Source of the DNA: Candidatus Omnitrophota bacterium
GTDB taxonomy: Bacteria; Omnitrophota; Gorgyraeia; Duberdicusellales; 4484-171
Length of the DNA: 64,000 nt
NCBI GenBank assembly: GCA_037146775.1
Contig: JBAWWL010000008.1
Coordinates: 6,160-70,159 of the forward strand
Direction of reading: 5' to 3'
The position numbers and the translations under genes were made by a program. Positions 6,004 to 61,406 of the stretch are shown here, piece after piece; within the stretch, counting starts at the first letter, position 1, and each line of letters opens with the position of its first letter. The notes below the pieces were generated by a model. The model did no database searches and was not told the DNA's origin. It saw only the letters and a program-made list of their open reading frames with translations.

Positions 6004-6278
6004 TAGTTAAAAAAGTCACGCGCAAGGAGTGCGAATAATACAATATTAGTAAATACTTTCAAGAAGGTATTTCAGATTTTTTATGATGATTTAGGCATTA
6101 ACCGAAAAAATGCACTTGTCGCTCGGCATTTTTTCGGTATACCTCGACGTTATCTGAAATTCACCCCTAAATTACAAAGAAACTTAAGGGTAAATTTCAG
6201 CGTCGACCCTTCGGGCAAAAAATGTATTTAGCAAAATACATTTTTTTGGGTTAAGTATTTTCGATAAGAAGTAAAAAT
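6004..6278 (+). promoter_or_regulatory. Structured intergenic spacer inside V-ATPase operon with three perfect or near-perfect inverted repeats
   Basis: Three inverted repeats: ACCGAAAAAATGC...GCATTTTTTCGGT (13-bp stem); TCGACGTTATCTGAAATT...AATTTCAGCGTCGA; AAATGTATTT-agc-AAATACATTT. Confidence 0.5.
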
Positions 6279-9667: not shown

Positions 9668-11422
9668 ATGAAAGTATTAGGCAGGGTTTATAAAGTAGTG
9701 GGCCCGGTGGTGGAGCTGGAAGCCGTAGAGGGTTTACGTATGCTTGATATGGTGGAGGTTGGCCAGGAGCATTTAGTAGGTGAGGTAGTGCACCTGAAAG
9801 AAGATAAAGCATATGTACAAGTATACGAAGAAACCACATCTCTTAAAGCAGGAGATCCGGTTTATGCCCAAGGGTTTCCTTTGTATGTTGAATTAGGCCC
9901 GGGGCTTTTAGGCAATATTTATGACGGTATTCAAAGGCCATTAGAAGATATCGCAGCCAGAGAAGGTTTTTATATCGGCAGGGGAGTACATGTTGCGGCA
10001 TTAGACAGAAAAAAGAAATGGAATTTTACTCCATCTCGACAGTGTAACGAACAGATTAAGCAGGGCGAGGCGTTGGGGACGATTCCTGAAACCGGTCTGG
10101 TTACGCATAAAATACTAGTCCCGATTGGTGAATCTGGCCGCTTAAAATGGATTGCTGCCTGCGGTGATTATTCTTTGGAAGAAAAGATTGCGGTAATAGA
10201 AACTGTAAACGGAGAAAAAGATATATATATGTATCAACGTTGGCCGGTGAGAAAGCCAAGGCCTTATCTCGAGCGGGAAGTTGTTAACGAGCCTTTAATT
10301 ACCGGGCAGCGTATTATTGATACTTTGTTTCCCGTGGCTAAGGGTGGCTGCGTAGCGGTGCCCGGAGGTTTTGGTACCGGCAAGACCGTGGTCCAGCATC
10401 AGCTGGCAAAATGGAGCAATGCCGACGTGGTTATTTTCGTCGGCTGCGGAGAACGTGGAAATGAAATGACCGATGTCTTGCTAAACTTTCCTAAGCTTAT
10501 TGATCCGCGTACAGGAAGGCCGCTGTCAGAACGAACTATATTTATCGCCAATACATCGAACATGCCGGTGGCGGCACGTGAAGCGAGTATCTATACGGGG
10601 ATTACGCTTGCTGAGTATTATCGGGATATGGGATATAATGTTGCGCTTATGGCAGATTCTACCAGCCGCTGGGCAGAGGCGTTACGGGAGTTATCGGGCA
10701 GGCTTGAAGAGATGCCGCTCGAGGAAGGATTTCCGGCCTATTTACCATCGCGTTTGGCTGAATTTTATGAGCGCGCAGGAAAAGTAAAAACATTAAATCA
10801 CGAGGATAGCTCTATTACCATCATTGCTTCGGTTTCTCCTCCGGGGGGAGATTTTTCTGAACCGGTTACTTCTCACACGAAGCGGTTTATCCGTTGTTTT
10901 TGGGCTTTAGATAAAGATTTAGCCAACGCGCGCCATTATCCTTCCATAAGCTGGATTGATAGTTATTCCGAATATCTCGATGATATTAAAGGCTGGTGGC
11001 ATAAAAATATTGATGAGGGGTGGTTAAAGTTACGTTATGAGATGATGGAGCTTTTACAGAAGGAACAACGTTTACAGCAGGTGGTTAAACTGGTTGGTTC
11101 AGACGTATTGCCGCAAACGCAGCGTTTAATCTTGGAAGTATGTTATCTTTTCAAGAATGCATTTTTGCAGCAAAGTGCTTTTGATGATGTTGACGCTTAT
11201 TCGTCAGCCCGTAAACAGTTTTTAATGTTGAAAATCATATTACAGTTTTATCATAAAGCAGAAATATTTATTAAGAAAGGAATGACCGTGACAGAAATTC
11301 GTGAAATTCCGATATATAATGAAATTATGCGCATGAAGCTTACCTATAGCGAAAATGATATTGACAAGGTGTTGGGATTACTTGGACGGATAGAAGAGTC
11401 TTTTGAAGGGTTGGGCTTCTAA
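9668..11422 (+). CDS. atpA: V/A-type ATPase catalytic subunit A
   Basis: Walker [10 protein letters not shown]. Non-homologous insert region. 584 aa. Confidence 0.9.
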
Positions 11423-21259: not shown

Positions 21260-22210
21260 ATGAATAAAAAAGTTTCTTTGATCCTAAAATTGGTTATTAC
21301 TGTGGGGATATTGTTCGTGCTTTTCCGGCTTGTCCCTTATCATGAATTACTCGATGTATATCGGCGATCCAATAAAGTTTTTATTCTGTACGGGTTTCTT
21401 GTCAATGTCTTTATTTTTATGCTCACTATCTTTAGATGGAAACTTTTATTATCATCTTTGGGGATTAAAGCCTCCACGCATGAAGCGTTTTCTGCTTCTT
21501 TTTCCGGACTTTTCTTCAACCTTATCTTCCCTTCATTCGTTGCCGGGGATATCTTCCGTGGTTTCAGCATTTCTAACCGTCATGGCCAATCGCACAAGGT
21601 AGCTTCTTCGGTGTTGATGGATCGTTTTAGCGGTGCCTTCGGATTAACCATAGTGGCGTTGTTTTCTTTTATTTTTGGCAGGAAATTGCTGCCGCATGGT
21701 CAGATACTCATTGCGCTTTTTATATTGTGTGCGATCGTGGGTTTTGTATCGCTTTTAATTTTTAGTAAAACATTTTTTTCTTTTTTTGCCAGGATATTTA
21801 AGAAAGGTTCTCCTCTGAAAGAGAAAGTTGTTAGTTTCCACGATCAGCTTTATTTCTTCAGAAAAAATCCGAAAGTTTTCCTGAAAAGTTTGTTAATTTC
21901 TGTTCCGGTGCAGGCCTTAGTTGCGGTAATGTTTTTTATTACTTCCAAGGCTTTTGATTTGCATGTGAGTATTATGTATTTTTTTATTTTGGTGCCTCTC
22001 ATTATGATGATTGCGCTTATCCCTATTACTATCGGTGGAATAGGAACGAGAGAGGCGGCGGTGGTTTATTTTTTCTCTTTTGTGGGCATAGCGAAGAGTG
22101 TAAGCTTGGGGCTCTCGCTTCTTAACCTGGCTTTCGGTATCATCTTGGGCTTATTTGGAGGAATCTTCTATGTTACTGTACATCATCGACGGCTTCAACC
22201 TCGTTCATAA
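21260..22210 (+). CDS. Flippase-like / lysylphosphatidylglycerol-synthase TM-region family membrane protein
   Basis: 316 aa. About 8 TM helices. Resembles the UPF0104/LPG_synthase_TM topology. Weak assignment. Confidence 0.45.
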   Translation: MNKKVSLILKLVITVGILFVLFRLVPYHELLDVYRRSNKVFILYGFLVNVFIFMLTIFRWKLLLSSLGIKASTHEAFSASFSGLFFNLIFPSFVAGDIFRGFSISNRHGQSHKVASSVLMDRFSGAFGLTIVALFSFIFGRKLLPHGQILIALFILCAIVGFVSLLIFSKTFFSFFARIFKKGSPLKEKVVSFHDQLYFFRKNPKVFLKSLLISVPVQALVAVMFFITSKAFDLHVSIMYFFILVPLIMMIALIPITIGGIGTREAAVVYFFSFVGIAKSVSLGLSLLNLAFGIILGLFGGIFYVTVHHRRLQPRS

Positions 22211-22619
22211 GGTGCCGGAATTAAAAACTTCAGATCAGCCGCACATTGGGCTTATCCGTTATATCAAAACCCATCGTTTGACCGGAAGTGTAACAAATAA
22301 AGTAACCATTGTTTTTGATGGTTTTCCCAGGCCGGAAGTTTTGATGGATAAAACGTACCAGATTATTTTCAGTCTTGAGCGCACGGCGGACGCGGTGATT
22401 AAAGAAAGAATCGCCAAGATAAAAAATAAATCACAAGTGGTCGTGGTAAGTGATGACCGAGAAATCAGGGATTGCGTGCGCCAAGAAAAAGCAACGTCGT
22501 TACGTACCTTTGATTTTTTGGATAGGAAGAAAGAAAAACGTTCGGTAGAAGAAAAAGAGATCAGTTACCCCCTGCAGCATGAAATTACCGAGGAATTGCG
22601 CAAAATCTGGCTTAAATAA
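22170..22619 (+). CDS. NYN-domain (YacP-like) protein
   Basis: LLYIIDGFNLVH N-terminus typical of YacP/Rae1 NYN RNases. ATG at 22170 has GGAGG 8 nt upstream. The track start at 22155 is TTG. Confidence 0.6.
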   Translation: MLLYIIDGFNLVHKVPELKTSDQPHIGLIRYIKTHRLTGSVTNKVTIVFDGFPRPEVLMDKTYQIIFSLERTADAVIKERIAKIKNKSQVVVVSDDREIRDCVRQEKATSLRTFDFLDRKKEKRSVEEKEISYPLQHEITEELRKIWLK

Positions 22620-22718
22620 TGGCAAATGTCAAAATAAAAATGACAAATAATAAAGCTCAAATGACAAAACGAACAGTTTTGACATTTGAATTTTGTCATT
22701 TGAAATTTTCTGTACTCA
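22620..22718 (+). promoter_or_regulatory. TGACAAA/TTTGTCA repeat-rich operator-like region
   Basis: aaatgtcaaaa...aaatgacaaa...aaatgacaaaa...ttttgacattt...ttttgtcattt gives nested inverted and direct repeats over about 90 nt, immediately upstream of the MBL-fold gene. Confidence 0.5.
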
Positions 22719-23484
22719 TATGAGTTTTATAAAATTCTTAGGAACAGCCGGTGCGAGATTCGTAATGATTAAGCAGTTACGTTCTTCCGGCGGCATGTGG
22801 CTGAGCCATAAGAAAACAAACATGATGATCGACCCCGGGCCGGGAGCTTTGGTGCGCTGTAATAGCGTCCGGCCAAAGCTTGACCCCGGAACGCTGGACG
22901 CTATTCTTCTGACACATAAACATCTTGACCATGCCGGCGACATCAACGCCATGATTGAGGCAATGACCGAAGGTGGTTTTAAGAAAAAGGGAACAATTTT
23001 TCTTCCGGCCGACGCACTAGGGGAGGATGGAGTTATTTTTTCCTATCTTAAAGACTTTCCCGAGCAGACAGTATTGCTTAAGAAAGGAAAATTTTGCATA
23101 GGTGATATTTCTTTTGAAATTCCGGTCAGGAATGATCATCCCTGTGAAACCTACGGTATAAAATTCTTTATTGGCGATACTATCGTTTCGCTGGTAGCGG
23201 ATACCGACTATTTTGATGAACTGATTAGTATCTATAAAGGTTCAACCGTGCTTATCCTGAATGTGGTATTCCATCAGAGGCGTGACGATATTAAACATTT
23301 GTGTCTTGAGGAAGCGATTGAGTTGATCAAGAAAATAAAGCCGCGCAAGGCGGTTATTACTCATTTTGGTATGAGTATGCTGAAGGCGAAACCGTATCTT
23401 TTAGAAGAAAAGCTTAAAGAAGAACTGCAGGCAGATATTGTATTTGCGCGCGACGGGATGAAGCTGGAATTGTCTTTAGAGTGA
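22719..23484 (+). CDS. MBL-fold metallo-hydrolase
   Basis: HKHLDHAGD (H-x-H-x-D-H) zinc motif. N-terminal FLGTAG. Confidence 0.7.
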
Positions 23485-23573: not shown

Positions 23574-24623
23574 ATGCCAAGATCAACTAAGAAAAAATTT
23601 GAGCGCATAACTATCAAGTCCGAGTCAGGTAGAGAAAAAGAGCCGGTCAAAATCACCGTTATCGATTACGATGAGGCAAACTTTCAGCAGAAGGAAGTTT
23701 CTTCGGTCGAAGAATGTTTTATTTTCAGAGACAGGCCTACAATAACCTGGATCAATGTTGATGGTATCCATAAGCCAGGGGTTATCGAAAAACTTGCCAA
23801 CTGTTTCTGTCTGCATCCTTTAATTATCGAAGATATATGTGATGTTGATCAGCGGCCAAAATTCGAGGATTTAGGCAGCTATATCTATATCGTTATAAAA
23901 ATGCTTTCTTATGAAGCGGAAAACAGCGAAATAAAGATTGAGCAGATGAGCCTTGTTTTAGGTAATAATTTTGTTCTTTCTTTTCAGGAGACGGTAGGCG
24001 ATGTTTTTGGGCCTATCCGGGATCGCATCAAAAATAGTAAAGGCCGCCACCGTAAAATGGGCGCAGATTATCTGGCATATTCCTTGATAGATGCAATAGT
24101 AGATAACTATTTCAACATCCTCGATGAGTTCGGTGAGCGCATTGAGTTTCTTGAAGAAGAGATAATTTCCAGGCCCGATCAGCAGGTTTTAAAAGAGGTC
24201 TATAACCTTAAAAGGGAGATTATTTTTCTGCGTAAGTCTATTTGGCCGCTGAGAGAACTTGTGCGTTCCCTTGAACGCATTGAATCAGCGTTAATCAGGG
24301 ATACCACGCGAATTTATTTGAGAGATATTTATGACCATGTAATACAGATCAGCGATTCGATGGAGGTTTCCAGGGAAATGCTTACGGCTATGATTGAAAT
24401 GTATCTATCCAGTCTAAGTAATAAGCTTAATGAAGTAATGAAGGTTTTGACGGTTATCGCCACAATATTCATGCCTCTTACTTTTATTACCGGTATTTTT
24501 GGGATGAATTTTAAATATATTCCCGGTTTAGAGCGGTTTTGGGGTTTTCCTGCCGCCTTATTGATTATGCTTATCGTGGCTTTGTTTATGATAAGATATT
24601 TTCAGAGGAACCGGTGGATATAG
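23574..24623 (+). CDS. corA: Magnesium/cobalt transporter CorA
   Basis: C-terminal two TM helices with a GMNF motif (GIFGMNFKYIP). 349 aa. Confidence 0.85.
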   Translation: MPRSTKKKFERITIKSESGREKEPVKITVIDYDEANFQQKEVSSVEECFIFRDRPTITWINVDGIHKPGVIEKLANCFCLHPLIIEDICDVDQRPKFEDLGSYIYIVIKMLSYEAENSEIKIEQMSLVLGNNFVLSFQETVGDVFGPIRDRIKNSKGRHRKMGADYLAYSLIDAIVDNYFNILDEFGERIEFLEEEIISRPDQQVLKEVYNLKREIIFLRKSIWPLRELVRSLERIESALIRDTTRIYLRDIYDHVIQISDSMEVSREMLTAMIEMYLSSLSNKLNEVMKVLTVIATIFMPLTFITGIFGMNFKYIPGLERFWGFPAALLIMLIVALFMIRYFQRNRWI

Positions 24624-24635
24624 TAATAAACAGAG

Positions 24636-24760
24636 GACAGATGACAGAAAACAGAAGACAGAGGAGATAAGGCAGATTTTTGACTTCTGACACCTATTTT
24701 CTGACTTCTGATATCTGACGTCTGACTTCTGACATCTGTTTTAATTTGGTAATCGGCCCC
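24636..24760. repeat. Inverted pair of heptanucleotide tandem arrays (RRCAGAR x5 then CTGACNT x8)
   Basis: aacagag gacagat gacagaa aacagaa gacagag ... ctgactt ctgacac ... ctgactt ctgatat ctgacgt ctgactt ctgacat. The two halves are reverse complements and can form a long imperfect hairpin just after the corA stop. Confidence 0.7.
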
Positions 24761-26426: not shown

Positions 26427-26942
26427 ATGAAAAAGATAAAAATAACGATTATAGCCGTTGCGGCTGTAGCAATGGTTTTCTTTGGCGCGCACGATGTGCT
26501 AGCGCGCGGTGGAGGTGGAGGGCACATGGGAGGCGGCGGCGGCGGTGGCTGGCACGGCGGAGGAGGCGGTGGCGGCGAGCACGGTGGCGGTGGCGGCGGG
26601 CACGGACAAGGCGGCCACAGGCATAATAACAATAATAATTATTACTATGGCGGCGGCGGGTGGGGTTACGGATTTGATGATGAAGCTGTAGTCAACGTGG
26701 ATTTGGATACTGATTCACGGCCGTCTACTGTTGTGGTGGAGCAGCCTACTACCGAAGTAGTCCAGCAGCCTGTACCAACAGCAGATGCGCCTGTCGGAGC
26801 TCAGGTGACAATGCTTCCTTCCGGAGCTGAGGGCAGGATTATCGGCGGCGCGCAATTTTATATAAGCGGTAATACCTGGTATAAGCCGTATTTCGGTGCA
26901 AGCGGCGTATATTATGAGGTTGTATCTCCTCCGAACACTTAG
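26427..26942 (+). CDS. Secreted Gly/His-rich low-complexity protein
   Basis: Signal peptide, then (G6-7-[HWE]H) x4, HRH, N5Y3, G4WGYG, and a structured-looking C-terminal domain. ATG at 26427 with GGAGGAG upstream. The track start at 26385 is TTG. Confidence 0.6.
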   Translation: MKKIKITIIAVAAVAMVFFGAHDVLARGGGGGHMGGGGGGGWHGGGGGGGEHGGGGGGHGQGGHRHNNNNNYYYGGGGWGYGFDDEAVVNVDLDTDSRPSTVVVEQPTTEVVQQPVPTADAPVGAQVTMLPSGAEGRIIGGAQFYISGNTWYKPYFGASGVYYEVVSPPNT

Positions 26943-39269: not shown

Positions 39270-40052
39270 ATGTTAGCTAAGCGTATTATCCCTTGCTTGG
39301 ATATTAATAAGGGCAGGGTAGTAAAAGGGGTAAATTTCGTTCAATTAAAAGACGCCGGTGATCCCATTAAAAATGCCCAGTTTTATGAACGGGAAGGCGC
39401 TGATGAGCTTGTATTTTTAGATATTACTGCCAGCTTTGAACAGCGCTCTACTACTGTTGATTTGGTACGTAAGGTCGCGCAGGTGGTATTCATGCCCTTT
39501 ACGGTAGGGGGCGGGATACGCAGTGTTGAGGACATTAGAGCGCTTTTGCGTGCCGGAGCGGATAAGGTTTCGCTTAATACCATAGCGGTAAATAACCCTC
39601 CTATTGTACGTAAAGCAAGCGGTATTTTTGGCAGTCAATGCATCGTAGTTGCTATTGATGCCAAGCGCATGCATAGCGCTAAGCGTAGGGGCAAAAGTGG
39701 AAGGCAATGGGAAGTGTATATTAATGGCGGGAGAACCCCTACTGGTTTGAATGCGTTAACGTGGGCTAAACGGGTAGAATCGTTAGGTGCGGGAGAAATA
39801 CTGCTTACAAGTATGGATTATGATGGCACGAAAGATGGATATGATATTGAGTTGACCAAAGAAATTACCGCACACGTGAGAATTCCGGTGATTGCTTCCG
39901 GAGGCGCCGGACGGATTTCTCATTTCTATGATGTATTTCATGACACAGGGGTGTCTGCGGCACTCGCCGCCTCTATCTTTCATTATCGGGAAATTCGAAT
40001 AAAGGAAATCAAAGAACAATTAAAAGCGAAAGGAGTTGAGGTGCGTACATGA
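39270..40052 (+). CDS. hisF: Imidazole glycerol phosphate synthase cyclase subunit
   Basis: RIIPCLDI...KGVNF N-terminus. (beta/alpha)8 HisF signature. 260 aa. Confidence 0.9.
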
Positions 40053-40486
40053 AGAAACCAGAGACCAGAAACCAGAGGACAGAAGTCAGAAGACGGAAGA
40101 CAGAGGTCAGAGGTCAGAAGTCAGAAGACAGAAGACAGAGGACAGAGGACAGAAGGCAGAGGGGAAAGATAATAGTTCCGAAGTTAAAATTTGACGAAAA
40201 GGGGCTTATCCCTGCAATCGTTCAAGATGTAAAAAACGGCGATGTACTTATGATCGCTTATATGAATGAAGAGTCTCTGCGTATCACCTTGAAAGAAAAA
40301 AGGACTTGTTTTTATTCTCGTTCGCGCCAAACCCTGTGGAGAAAAGGCGATACCAGCGGGCATATCCAGAAAGTGAAGGCTGTGTGCTATGATTGTGATT
40401 GCGACGCGCTTCTGATTAAAGTTGAGCAAACAGGCGTGGCGTGTCACACTGGAGAGAGCAGCTGTTTTTATAGAAAAATTATTTGA
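40049..40486 (+). CDS. hisI: Phosphoribosyl-AMP cyclohydrolase with N-terminal heptamer-repeat-encoded extension
   Basis: HisI core [15 protein letters not shown]...C-x-x-C metal site. The first ~35 codons are a 15 x 7-nt repeat array encoding [21 protein letters not shown]... The true start could be downstream and non-canonical. Confidence 0.75.
40055..40159 (+). repeat. Heptanucleotide tandem array (15 units; aaaccag/aggacag/aagtcag/aggtcag...), 105 nt in-frame
   Basis: Direct reading. Same repeat family as 24636-24760 and 60612-60671. Confidence 0.75.
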
Positions 40487-59283: not shown

Positions 59284-60543
59284 ATGCACGACTTTACGTA
59301 CAAAAACAACCATCTTTATTGCGAAGAAGTACGTGTCGAAGAGCTTGCCAAGAAATTCGGAACGCCTCTATACGTCTATAGTTACCATACTATCATTGAT
59401 CATTATCTAAAACTAAAAGCGGCATTCACCGAGCTTTGGCCATTGATCTGTTATTCTGTGAAAGCCAATTCAAACCTTTCCATATTGAAGGCGTTGGTCG
59501 ATAAAGGGGCTGGGCTGGATATTGTTTCCGGCGGCGAACTTTTTAGGGCTCTCAAAGCGGGATGCCCTCCTGAACGTATCGTGTATGCATCGGTGGGTAA
59601 AACCGATACGGAAATAGAAGAAGCTATCAAAAAAAATATTTTATTTTTTAACGTGGAGTCGGTAGCGGAGTTAGAAAATATAAATCGGATTGCCAAGAGG
59701 CTTAGAAAAAGAGCGAAGGTTGCGATACGGATTAATCCTGACGTGGAGCCGAAAACGCACAAATTTATCACTACCGGAAAACTAACTAACAAATTTGGTA
59801 TAGATTTTTCCAGTGCGTATAATATTTTTATGGTGCGCAGCAGATTTCCATACGCGCACATTTGCGGTGTACACCTTCATATTGGTTCGCAGATTACCGA
59901 AAGTGCACCCTACATTTCAGCTATTCGCAAGATGAGCCGTTTTATCCAGAAGCTGGAGGCCGGCGGTATTAGCTTGGAATATCTGAATATCGGCGGAGGC
60001 TTGGGGATTGTGTACGATAAAGAGACTCCGCAAACGGCGGATAATTTTGCCCGTAAAGTGCTGCCGTTGCTTAAAAAGACTAAACTTAAAATTATCATGG
60101 AGCCGGGCAGATTTATTGTAGGTAACGCCGGCATTCTAGTCGTAAAAGCGTTATACCTTAAATCAACACCGGTCAAAAAGTTTGTAATTGTTGATGGCGG
60201 CATGAATGATTTGATCCGGCCCGCTCTCTATGACGCATACCACAGAGTAGTTCCTCTTTCGCTAAAATCTAATACTCAGCATCCGGCAGAGAAAGTAGAT
60301 ATCGTTGGGCCGATATGCGAAAGTGGTGATTTTTTTGCCAAGGAACGGTTGCTGGCGAAGGTCAAGGAAGGCGGCTTTATGGCAGTTATGAGCGCAGGCG
60401 CGTATGGTTTTAGTATGTCCAGCAATTATAATTCACGGCCTCGGGCCATGGAAGTGCTTATCCACAAAGATAAAGTGCATATTATTCGGGATAGGGAAAC
60501 GTATGATGATCTGATAAAGAAGGAAAGGGTAATTTCTTTATGA
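59284..60543 (+). CDS. lysA: Diaminopimelate decarboxylase
   Basis: Fold-III PLP decarboxylase (YSVKAN PLP Lys, GGGLG, EPGR, CESGD). Confidence 0.85.
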   Translation: MHDFTYKNNHLYCEEVRVEELAKKFGTPLYVYSYHTIIDHYLKLKAAFTELWPLICYSVKANSNLSILKALVDKGAGLDIVSGGELFRALKAGCPPERIVYASVGKTDTEIEEAIKKNILFFNVESVAELENINRIAKRLRKRAKVAIRINPDVEPKTHKFITTGKLTNKFGIDFSSAYNIFMVRSRFPYAHICGVHLHIGSQITESAPYISAIRKMSRFIQKLEAGGISLEYLNIGGGLGIVYDKETPQTADNFARKVLPLLKKTKLKIIMEPGRFIVGNAGILVVKALYLKSTPVKKFVIVDGGMNDLIRPALYDAYHRVVPLSLKSNTQHPAEKVDIVGPICESGDFFAKERLLAKVKEGGFMAVMSAGAYGFSMSSNYNSRPRAMEVLIHKDKVHIIRDRETYDDLIKKERVISL

Positions 60544-61406
60544 GCACACGTGTTGCGTTTAAGAAAATGGTCGCCTCGGGCAACGACTTTGTTCTTTTGG
60601 AGGCCGGGAGTAAGAAGTCAGAAGTCAGAGGTCAGAGGTCAGAGGACAGAGGACAGAGGTCAGAAGGTAGAGCGTTGAGCAGTTTAGCGAAAAAAATGTG
60701 TGATAGGAAATACGGAATTGGAGCAGACGGATTATTGGTCATGGAAACGTCAAAAACCGCGGATGCAAGAATGCGCATTTTTAATGCTGACGGGTCAGAG
60801 GCCCAAATGTGCGGGAATGGCGCACGCTGCGCTGCTTTGTGGGTAAACGAGAAATTAAGAATTAAAGACAGGAGATTAAAGATAGAAACCAAGGCAGGCC
60901 TCTTAAGAGCGGAGGTCTCTGGTGAACAGGTGCGGATACAGCTAACCGACCCCAAAGATGTCAGGTTACATGTGCCTATTACGGTAAACAACCGGCCGCT
61001 TAAGGTTCATTTTATTAATACCGGCGTACCACATACAATTATTTTTGTTGCAGGTATCGAGTTGATCGATGTGGATGGCCTGGGCCGATTAATCCGTCAT
61101 CATCGTTATTTCAAACCAGCGGGAACAAATGTTGATTTTGTACAGGTATCCGGCGATGATCTTATAAGGGTACGTACGTACGAGCGTGGAGTTGAAGCGG
61201 AGACTCTTGCGTGCGGTACCGGATCGGTCGCGGCGGCAATCATGTACAGTTATCAACTCCCGGTCCGTAACCGCTACCACATAAAAGTATTGACTCAGGG
61301 CGGCGAAGTATTGAGTGTTTATTTTGAAAAAAAAGATAATGCATTTATAAATGTGTGGTTGGAGGGGAAAGCCCGGAATGTATTTGAGGGAGGTTATTAT
61401 GTTTAA
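60540..61406 (+). CDS. dapF: Diaminopimelate epimerase with 20-aa heptamer-repeat-encoded insertion
   Basis: ASGNDFVLL and NADGSEAQMCGNGARC catalytic Cys motifs. Insertion [21 protein letters not shown] lies between the first strand and the GIGADG region. Confidence 0.85.
   Translation: MSTRVAFKKMVASGNDFVLLEAGSKKSEVRGQRSEDRGQRSEGRALSSLAKKMCDRKYGIGADGLLVMETSKTADARMRIFNADGSEAQMCGNGARCAALWVNEKLRIKDRRLKIETKAGLLRAEVSGEQVRIQLTDPKDVRLHVPITVNNRPLKVHFINTGVPHTIIFVAGIELIDVDGLGRLIRHHRYFKPAGTNVDFVQVSGDDLIRVRTYERGVEAETLACGTGSVAAAIMYSYQLPVRNRYHIKVLTQGGEVLSVYFEKKDNAFINVWLEGKARNVFEGGYYV
60612..60671 (+). repeat. Heptanucleotide tandem array (about 8.5 units; aagtcag/aggtcag/aggacag), 60 nt in-frame within dapF
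   Basis: Direct reading. Same family as 24636-24760 and 40055-40159. Confidence 0.75.

Follow-up and report, generated by a model that had tools for sequence, protein, structure and literature searches.

A heptanucleotide repeat array held in frame in a surface loop of diaminopimelate epimerase from an Omnitrophota bacterium

How does a tandem repeat with a unit of seven nucleotides come to lie inside an essential protein-coding gene? Non-triplet repeats are expected to be purged from such genes, because every single-unit slip is a null mutation, yet one clade of Omnitrophota has many of them, near-perfect and at conserved positions, in its lysA, dapF and hisI genes. The locus that raises the question is dapF, the gene for diaminopimelate (DAP) epimerase, in a stretch of 64,000 nucleotides, referred to here as the window, from a Candidatus Omnitrophota bacterium (assembly GCA_037146775.1, contig JBAWWL010000008.1). 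We consider it probable that the dapF array belongs, as a coding copy, to a dispersed family of heptanucleotide simple sequence repeats (SSRs), and that it has expanded by six units in a permissive loop of DapF and has been kept in frame by selection. A preliminary description of the window had pointed to this array; its observation is confirmed as real and its account as largely right.

The ATG of dapF overlaps the lysA stop codon in an operon lysA-dapF-dapA-dapB, and the encoded protein is identical to NCBI MEI8350003.1, from a contig of 153,777 nt. The gene and its parts are as follows.

60540 to 61406, forward strand: dapF open reading frame (ORF), diaminopimelate epimerase of 288 amino acids (aa), PF01678 match at 4e-47.
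60582 to 60602, forward strand: conserved 5' flank of the array, strand NDFVLLE (aa 15-21), holding the invariant G14-N15-D16-F17.
60598 to 60681, forward strand: full array as read from the sequence, including possible degenerate edges, about 12 units and 84 nt, taking in all of the variable loop and running into the following helix.
60603 to 60650, forward strand: predicted disordered loop AGSKKSEVRGQRSEDR, aa 22-37, modelled without secondary structure, with block means of 62 and 55 in predicted local distance difference test (pLDDT).
60613 to 60664, forward strand: core heptanucleotide array; Tandem Repeats Finder (TRF) gives period 7, 7.4 copies, 93% matches, score 76 and consensus AGAGGTC.
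60651 to 60698, forward strand: helix GQRSEGRALSSLAKKM, aa 38-53, placed by structure model and alignment; its first turns are array-coded and its end is the conserved flank LAKKMCDRKY.
60810 to 60812 and 61212 to 61214, forward strand: codons of the catalytic cysteines C91 and C225, invariant in 44 orthologues.

The product has what defines a DapF, namely two stretches of the DAP_epimerase domain (PF01678, 4e-47), the cysteine pair and the GNDF substrate motif; G14, N15, D16, F17, C91 and C225 are the invariant columns among the 44 orthologues. The array is placed between the strand NDFVLLE and the helix LSSLAKKMCDRKY. Its core consists of the units CAGAAGT, CAGAGGT and CAGAGGA, and in translation all three codon phases are used in turn, which gives a hydrophilic peptide with a period of seven residues (SEVRGQR/SEDRGQR). 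Read in the phase of CAGARGW, the first six units of the full array are TGGAGGC, CGGGAGT, AAGAAGT, CAGAAGT, CAGAGGT and CAGAGGT, and the last six are CAGAGGA, CAGAGGA, CAGAGGT, CAGAAGG, TAGAGCG and TTGAGCA. The edge units match CAGARGW at 4-6 of the 7 positions, which is suggestive only of degenerate copies around a homogeneous core. The preliminary description had put the array at 60612-60671, between the N-terminal strand and the GIGADG segment. That span does hold 20 codons (aa 25-44), but the peptide quoted for it has 21 residues and begins at S24 (60609); the strand is indeed the upstream flank, but a conserved helix separates the array from GIGADG.

With head-to-tail copies of 7 nt at high identity, and with related arrays dispersed in the genome, the dapF array is a heptanucleotide SSR. 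By a strict score, 7 is the sole period among 5-11 that yields arrays in the window. With at most one mismatch allowed, the two-unit pattern CAGARGWCAGARGW has 24 occurrences in the window, where 0.13 would be expected; all of them fall in hisI, in dapF or in the intergenic region at 24.6 kb.

The reading frame limits what such an array can do. None of the three forward frames of the dapF array has an internal stop (two stops lie at the edges of the stretch tested). All three reverse frames contain stops, so that only the present orientation can be coding. Gain or loss of one unit brings a stop at aa 44-46, whereas gain or loss of three units keeps the frame.

Where does the array-coded peptide lie in the enzyme? 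An AlphaFold2 model of the window's DapF, built on 44 orthologues, has a mean pLDDT of 91.6 and a predicted template modelling (TM) score of 0.89. It shows a strand at aa 15-21, no secondary structure at aa 22-37 and a helix at aa 38-53, and confidence drops only over aa 21-40 (pLDDT below about 60, and under 50 at aa 30-34). The best structural matches of the model are solved DapF enzymes, with TM scores of 0.76-0.83. In phmmer searches against solved DapF structures the alignments begin only at residue ~48, past the array; the N-terminal match is lost because the array interrupts the DapF sequence. Judging from the model, the array would encode a disordered surface loop, together with N-terminal turns of a helix, between beta2 and alpha1, and it most likely has no effect on catalysis. 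The surface-loop position proposed earlier is thus borne out by the second beta-strand on one side, the helix on the other, the low pLDDT between them and the similarity to solved DapF. So is the claim of an in-frame array that leaves the enzyme intact, with conserved motifs, both cysteines and a confident DapF fold.

Is the loop unusual among its relatives? We measured it as the segment between GNDFxxx and GxGADG in 117 DapF orthologues. The best non-self homologues are 54-66% identical to the window's protein, and all those with a named source are labelled Omnitrophota. The loop is 38 aa long in the window and 21-24 aa in most of the orthologues. What had been called a 20-residue insertion is therefore a net excess of 14 aa (42 nt, six units). 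Loop lengths fall into classes of 16 (2 proteins), 19-24 (98), 29-31 (13), 38-39 (3) and 45 aa (1), in steps of 7 aa or 21 nt, and the earlier comparison with a variable number tandem repeat (VNTR) fits these classes.

The same period is present in the loop peptides themselves. In the variable part of the 117 orthologues, residues spaced 7 apart agree in 24% of cases; for the remaining spacings between 3 and 11 the figure is 4-9.5%. At least three identities at offset 7 are found in 29 of the 117, against 0-6 orthologues at offsets 5, 6, 8 and 9. Examples of such peptides are EVRSQKSEVRS, NYQLPITNYQ, DRVQSTEYRVQ, HDPRSTIHDP and AMRYALCAMR. A smaller group of orthologues (P0017, P0020, P0023, P0024, P0041, P0061 and P0106; P numbers are proteins and L numbers are loci) has 8-aa-periodic peptides instead. 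The GAAGTCA unit family, as in the window, is present as a short array at the same site, which we call site 1, in L081, P0016 and P0018. All 117 orthologues are in frame, though the search favours intact proteins. The preliminary description had seen the repeat as invading housekeeping ORFs. A fresh invasion of a site without repeats does not agree with the many orthologues that carry heptamer or octamer arrays of 4-5 units there at normal loop length; nor do orthologues uniformly have a plain loop of one length, as they vary in length and 29 of the 117 are periodic.

Arrays at this site are nevertheless not universal. The closest orthologue, P0002 (66% identical), has a plain non-repetitive loop, DNRSRKLNSGALK. 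Distant Omnitrophota DapF are without a heptamer array at site 1, and outgroup DapF (Verrucomicrobiota, Thermodesulfobacteriota and others) have none overlapping it among the matches listed. Among these matches, the loop of outgroups and distant Omnitrophota is 20-26 aa long, mostly 22, and often reads DNRxGxxxLxxxQIxxLCDRH. The protein homologue search found no relative of the window's DapF above 66% identity and metagenome contigs gave nothing above 58%; its 90% cluster has one member. A neighbour-joining tree of the 117 DapF cores is star-like at 55-60% identity and does not separate vertical inheritance from recurrent gain.

Several smaller observations concern array-bearing loops of DapF. 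Octamer arrays occupy such loops in some lineages (L104 at 10063-10096, L084 at 6248-6277), so the phenomenon is not strictly limited to period 7. About ten DapF orthologues have a 21-nt near-palindrome, CCTGCCTTGCCGGCAGGCAGG, encoding LPAGRQA, inserted in frame in the site-1 array (L100 at 10070-10090; P0011, P0025, P0038, P0057, P0058, P0059, P0063, P0090 and P0110). The +7 aa length class is largely explained by this palindrome, of which the 20.9-kb locus L100 has a single copy and the window none. One truncated orthologue, P0009, was considered as a frameshifted allele and rejected, since the protein is merely cut by the end of its contig. The end of that contig, L105, falls 27 nt upstream of the helix after site 1, so that the assembly break adjoins the array site; the break could hint at repeat-related fragmentation of the assembly.

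To see the arrays as DNA we compared 12 syntenic loci (arg genes-lysA-dapF-dapA-dapB and further genes) from independent NCBI, JGI and ENA assemblies. Several of them were chosen for a periodic DapF, which inflates the prevalence at site 1; the other sites described below were not selected for. Site 1 is occupied by uninterrupted arrays in nine of the ten loci first examined and by an interrupted one in the tenth (L100). These arrays are near-perfect, have 4-5 units and are lineage-specific: GAAGTCA in L081, AATTACC in L082 and L107, CACAGAA in L083, CCAAAGG in L084, GTACSGA in L086, GTCAAAG in L101, CGCTATG in L103, ACTATCC in L106 and the octamer CGGTTATC in L104.

Three further loops of the same two genes carry arrays. 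A loop of lysA (at about aa 325-335) does so in seven of the ten loci first examined, dapF site 2 (at about aa 96) in six (L082, L084, L086, L101, L102 and L103) and dapF site 3 (at about aa 225-235) in four. The other genes of these loci, about 16, hold five arrays in total. At all four recurrent positions the arrays fill loops about as long as those of array-free relatives. Of the 45 SSR arrays in 240 kb of the array clade, 36 have period 7. For other lineages (1,258 kb of loci) the count is 41 of 72, and the ones inspected there are mostly intergenic. In the window, two of the three further loops are placed as follows.

59284 to 60543, forward strand: lysA ORF; its variable loop VPLSLKSNTQHPAEK, at about aa 325-340, holds no clear array here and arrays with different units in seven relatives.
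60842 to 60885, forward strand: weak period-7 signal at dapF site 2, aa ~102-116, EKLRIKDRRLKIE; 19 of 35 positions match at period 7, and period 8 also gives 19, so the signal is not significant alone.

The latter may be a decayed array, the corresponding loop holding clear arrays in six relatives. The LysA array loop, recorded for L081-L086, L100-L104, L106 and L107, lies between YHxIxP and VDIVGPICES, equivalent to about 60250-60300 of the window.

Recurrence in separate assemblies bears on a simple objection, namely that the array or its length is an artefact of assembly or binning. The source is a metagenome-assembled genome, tandem repeats may be assembled wrongly, and an orthologue contig (L105) breaks off 27 nt before the region that follows site 1. 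We see almost no chance that this is the explanation. The array is at most 84 nt long, below typical read length; the frame is intact, with conserved DapF sequence on either side; in-frame arrays occur at the same site in the independent NCBI, JGI and ENA assemblies; and a HisI protein with its array has also been recorded from a separate Logan assembly.

What is the wider family to which the dapF array belongs? Besides dapF, two other places in the window hold CAGARGW units.

40049 to 40486, forward strand: hisI ORF, 145 aa, its ATG overlapping the hisF stop; protein identical to NCBI MEI8349982.1.
40053 to 40160, forward strand: 5' array of hisI, CAGARGW family, about 15 units; TRF gives a higher-order period of 35 nt, and translation yields an N-terminal extension of 36 residues.
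24630 to 24665, forward strand: intergenic CAGARGW array, the 5' arm of a hairpin, downstream of ORF 23574-24623.
24676 to 24742, reverse strand: intergenic inverted array (TCTGACT units), the 3' arm of the hairpin, with a U-rich run after it.

Coding sequence thus houses two of these loci, dapF and hisI, and the third is an intergenic inverted pair. The hisI array lies 20 kb upstream of dapF and shares with it the unit variants CAGAAGT, CAGAGGT and CAGAGGA; the preliminary description was correct in linking the two genes by one unit family. No ATG, GTG or TTG lies between the hisI array and the conserved KLKFDEKG, and the PRA-CH domain begins at aa 68. HisI orthologues of Omnitrophota have N-terminal extensions of 10-52 aa, often 7-aa periodic and with lineage-specific units. 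The intergenic hairpin has a folding energy of -39.5 kcal/mol (z = -4.5), and 0 of 200 shuffles fold as well; with its U-rich run it looks like a terminator. No inverted partner with which the dapF array could form a long-range RNA pair is found in the operon.

If intergenic members of the family act as RNA, could the array in dapF have a selected function of its own? The encoded loop might be a charged flexible tether for a partner, or the RNA or DNA might be a site for a factor that recognizes heptamer periodicity. The stable hairpins formed after genes by intergenic family members suggest a role at the RNA level elsewhere, four loop positions are conserved across genomes with near-perfect units, and binding of cold-shock proteins to heptamer direct repeats has been discussed for TAACTGA (PMC4679880). 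There is only a slim chance, in our estimate, that this explains the dapF array. Units differ between sites and between genomes, with no single recognition sequence or peptide conserved; the closest orthologue has a plain loop, and distant Omnitrophota and outgroups lack arrays; the loop is predicted to be disordered; and the dapF array has no inverted partner in its operon. The difference between sites is plain within single genomes, L101 having TTAAGGG, GTCAAAG, AGGCAAA and ATTACCG. A trans-acting factor specific for one sequence was considered as well and is unlikely, since units differ between sites within one genome.

How do such arrays change? Pairs of arrays share a unit (at most one mismatch) in 15.6% of cases within loci and in 4.5% between loci (permutation p ~0.0004). 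DapF pairs that are 85-87% identical can have unrelated site-1 arrays, and pairs that are only 78-82% identical can share an identical one, which means that change is wholesale and not gradual. L082, L106 and L107 share 83-87% identity across lysA-dapF, and aligning the DNA of these three gives the units below.

lysA loop: TTACCAA in L082, CATTACA in L106, CAATACT in L107.
dapF site 1: AATTACC in L082, CTATCCA in L106, AATTACC in L107.
dapF site 2: AAATCAA in L082, AAATCAA in L106, CAATACT in L107.
dapF site 3: AATATCA in all three, with 3.6 copies in L082, 4.6 in L106 and 4.6 in L107.

The site-2 unit of L107 is the unit of its own lysA loop, and the lysA unit of L082 is that of its own site 1. 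These replacements of whole arrays leave the loop length essentially unchanged. At site 3 the extra unit of L106 and L107 is offset by a nearby indel, with a net difference of 3 nt. Arrays therefore appear to be overwritten from other arrays of the same genome, in addition to slippage. The intergenic unit families ACGCTAT, AGTAGTG and AGGTNTTA/AAGTTAGG stand at different intergenic positions in the three loci, as if relocating (L082 11711-11790; L106 5329-5403 and 8876-8891; L107 8088-8228 and 11694-11765).

If sequence can be copied between arrays, the 42 extra bases of the window's dapF might have arrived in one step, as foreign or mobile DNA, as a miniature element or as a segment of the hisI or intergenic array. 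Three of the unit variants in dapF recur in the hisI array, arrays of close relatives have been overwritten by a neighbour's unit, and the palindromic 21-nt LPAGRQA mini-insert in about ten orthologues shows that small insertions do land in this loop. We regard a one-step arrival as improbable all the same. The homogeneous core with its possibly degenerate edges looks like growth inside an older array, and short arrays of the same unit family already stand at the site in L081, P0016 and P0018. Terminal inverted repeats, target duplications and non-repeat cargo are all lacking. Because it has no element ends, and no inverted arms stand within or beside it, the dapF array is not a mobile mini-insert. 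An intein or mini-insert analogy finds no support either, the insertion consisting of tandem units only, without terminal inverted repeats or splice-type motifs. One-step arrival also overlaps with the explanation that we prefer, expansion of a resident array in a permissive loop, which includes copying between arrays as a possible source.

That explanation may be put as follows. The beta2-alpha1 loop of DapF is free in sequence and roughly fixed in length, and in this clade it is often written as an array of 4-5 units of 7 nt, sometimes 8 nt. In the lineage of the window the array exceeds the usual loop by about six units (42 nt, 14 aa), an expansion that would have come about through strand slippage or unequal exchange within the array, possibly with copying (conversion) from another array of the same family. 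Selection on the essential dapF would then sort alleles into lengths spaced by 7 aa, since units of seven nucleotides can be gained or lost without a frameshift only in threes (21 nt). The site itself would be hypermutable, and the additional loop presumably neutral.

Some points weigh against this explanation. No relative above 66% identity was found, so that copy-number instability of dapF is something we infer rather than observe, and we likewise infer the neutrality of the 14 extra residues. The related loci were partly picked for periodic DapF peptides, with the inflation of site-1 prevalence already mentioned. Plain slippage would have difficulty in producing a perfect 7-nt array, or in exchanging one for another at constant length, in an essential gene, because the single-unit intermediates are frameshifts; the replacements in L082, L106 and L107 need more, for example array-to-array copying or compensated double events. 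Finally, recurrence at four loops of lysA and dapF, with few arrays in about 16 other genes, could mean that arrays are selected rather than tolerated.

Taken further, these points lead to a bolder proposal. The variable loops and termini of the clade's core biosynthetic enzymes (a single loop in lysA, three in dapF, and the N-terminus of hisI) would be repeatedly rewritten as near-perfect arrays of 7-8 nt, at near-constant length and with a unit copied from another array of the same genome. This would imply a specialised process of array-to-array copying, for which homeologous conversion and templated repair of fragile arrays are candidates. A second possibility is selection for hypermutable frameshift switches on the synthesis of lysine, DAP and histidine in host-dependent nanobacteria. 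We think it rather unlikely that the proposal is correct in this form.

The second branch of this proposal has a more familiar counterpart, a contingency switch of the phase-variation type. Slips of one unit would turn dapF, and likewise lysA and hisI, off and on, which might suit a host-dependent nanobacterium that scavenges lysine, DAP or histidine or gains from altered peptidoglycan. The dapF array does lie in the 5' part of its ORF, its unit length is not divisible by three, and gaining or losing one unit truncates DapF at aa 44-46, as expected of a non-triplet intragenic SSR at a contingency locus. Across the clade arrays recur in lysA, dapF and hisI and are rare in the neighbouring arg and dap genes. 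The neuO gene of E. coli K1 works in this way with a 5' heptanucleotide array (PMC13001214), and Omnitrophota have been described as largely host-dependent (PMC10066038). Still, we give a switch only a small chance. Its targets would be housekeeping biosynthetic genes and not genes for surface structures or host interaction; contingency loci are accessory genes, and dapF is part of the conserved arg-lysA-dapF-dapA-dapB cluster. Most orthologous arrays have only 4-5 units and would switch slowly, and no out-of-frame allele was seen, in searches biased to intact proteins. Sites 2 and 3 of dapF, and the C-terminal domain of lysA, moreover have their arrays in internal loops at a distance from the 5' end, for which a permissive loop is the simpler account. 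The dapF array is thus not a demonstrated contingency locus, because the gene is a housekeeping one and no off alleles are known.

Are comparable repeats known elsewhere? Among cyanobacteria, short tandemly repeated repetitive sequences (STRRs) with the heptamers CCCCAGT, TTGGTCA and CAACAGT were reportedly described by Mazel and colleagues in 1990, and Vioque is said to have found STRRs in 1997 inside helix P12 of the cyanobacterial RNase P RNA gene (rnpB). The likeness to our case lies in genome-wide heptamer families, inverted pairs that form hairpins, differences between strains and a position in a permissive part of a housekeeping gene. The STRRs reported from helix P12 of rnpB are the nearest counterpart of an array in such a position. 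Phylum and units differ, and the case within a gene concerns an RNA gene and not a protein loop constrained by frame. We know of no report of recurrence at orthologous sites with unit replacement for STRRs. The dapF array, with its unit CAGARGW and its source in Omnitrophota, behaves like an STRR but is not one in the strict sense, a family of heterocyst-forming cyanobacteria, because both unit and taxon differ. A Calothrix STRR report is cited in PMC4692102.

More generally, Mrazek et al. (2007), as summarised in PMC4679880 and PMC4692102, found heptanucleotide repeats to be the most abundant class of long SSRs, proposed polymerase slippage, and placed non-triplet repeats mostly in intergenic regions, with under-representation in ORFs. 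The likeness is one of short dispersed 7-nt arrays, with period 7 dominant here as there. The difference is one of location: in-frame positions in housekeeping genes, at orthologous loops, are held by two of the window's three loci and by most of the arrays in the syntenic loci of relatives.

A coding example is neuO of E. coli K1, a phage-borne accessory gene whose 5' heptanucleotide VNTR, AAGACTC, has 3-53 repeats; two-thirds of its sequenced alleles are out of frame, and it is a demonstrated phase-variation switch (PMC13001214). As in dapF, a coding heptamer array gives a 7-aa-periodic peptide, the protein is full-length only when the frame is kept, and the peptide is tolerated in an active enzyme. 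Unlike neuO, dapF belongs to core biosynthesis; its array of about 12 units codes for part of an internal loop, and off alleles are not known. The TAACTGA repeats of marine Beggiatoaceae and some cyanobacteria are overwhelmingly intergenic, stand just upstream of start codons and are dominated by a single unit (PMC4679880). They too are one heptamer family present at many places, constrained in orientation by stop codons and readable as LSVISYQ; the Omnitrophota clade, in contrast, has several coexisting unit families in internal protein loops. The GGGAATC/GGGGAYT repeats of Xanthomonas and Nostoc (PMC4692102) are likewise heptameric, prefer about four units and form intergenic inverted pairs, whereas the units of the window and its relatives are not G-tract repeats and many are coding.

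In the literature searched we found no paper linking Omnitrophota with heptamer or SSR repeats. The kind of repeat is known, then, and the occupation of essential-gene loops at orthologous sites appears to be unreported. What makes these genes useful is their reading frame, an inherent filter through which the step size of change (21 nt) becomes visible. They offer a natural system in which to ask why 7-nt repeats dominate long prokaryotic SSRs, how dispersed arrays exchange sequence and what hypermutable load essential genes can carry. On the practical side, lineage-specific inserts of low complexity break alignments, and the arrays may fragment metagenome assemblies.

Other repeats were seen in passing. 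A search with the peptide of the hisI array returned 78 representative proteins (P0241-P0318) with long CAGARGW-coded runs, most of which look like ORFs called across long arrays and not like domains; the CAGARGW unit family is widespread in metagenomes. Intergenic GGTTCAA/AGTTCAA arrays, often inverted pairs, occur across phyla (L016 of Verrucomicrobiia, L035 and L075 of Deltaproteobacteria). Within the window, an AT-rich heptamer family, AATGACA/AATGTCA, with an inverted copy, TTTTGACATTTGAA, lies at 22618-22708 in the spacer of ORFs 22155-22619 and 22693-23484. GGC-rich repeats with periods of 21-30 nt, inside overlapping ORFs at 26506-26605, probably code for a run rich in glycine. Upstream of ORF 296-1837, at 128-190, stands a 29-nt direct repeat (2.2 copies, 88% matches).

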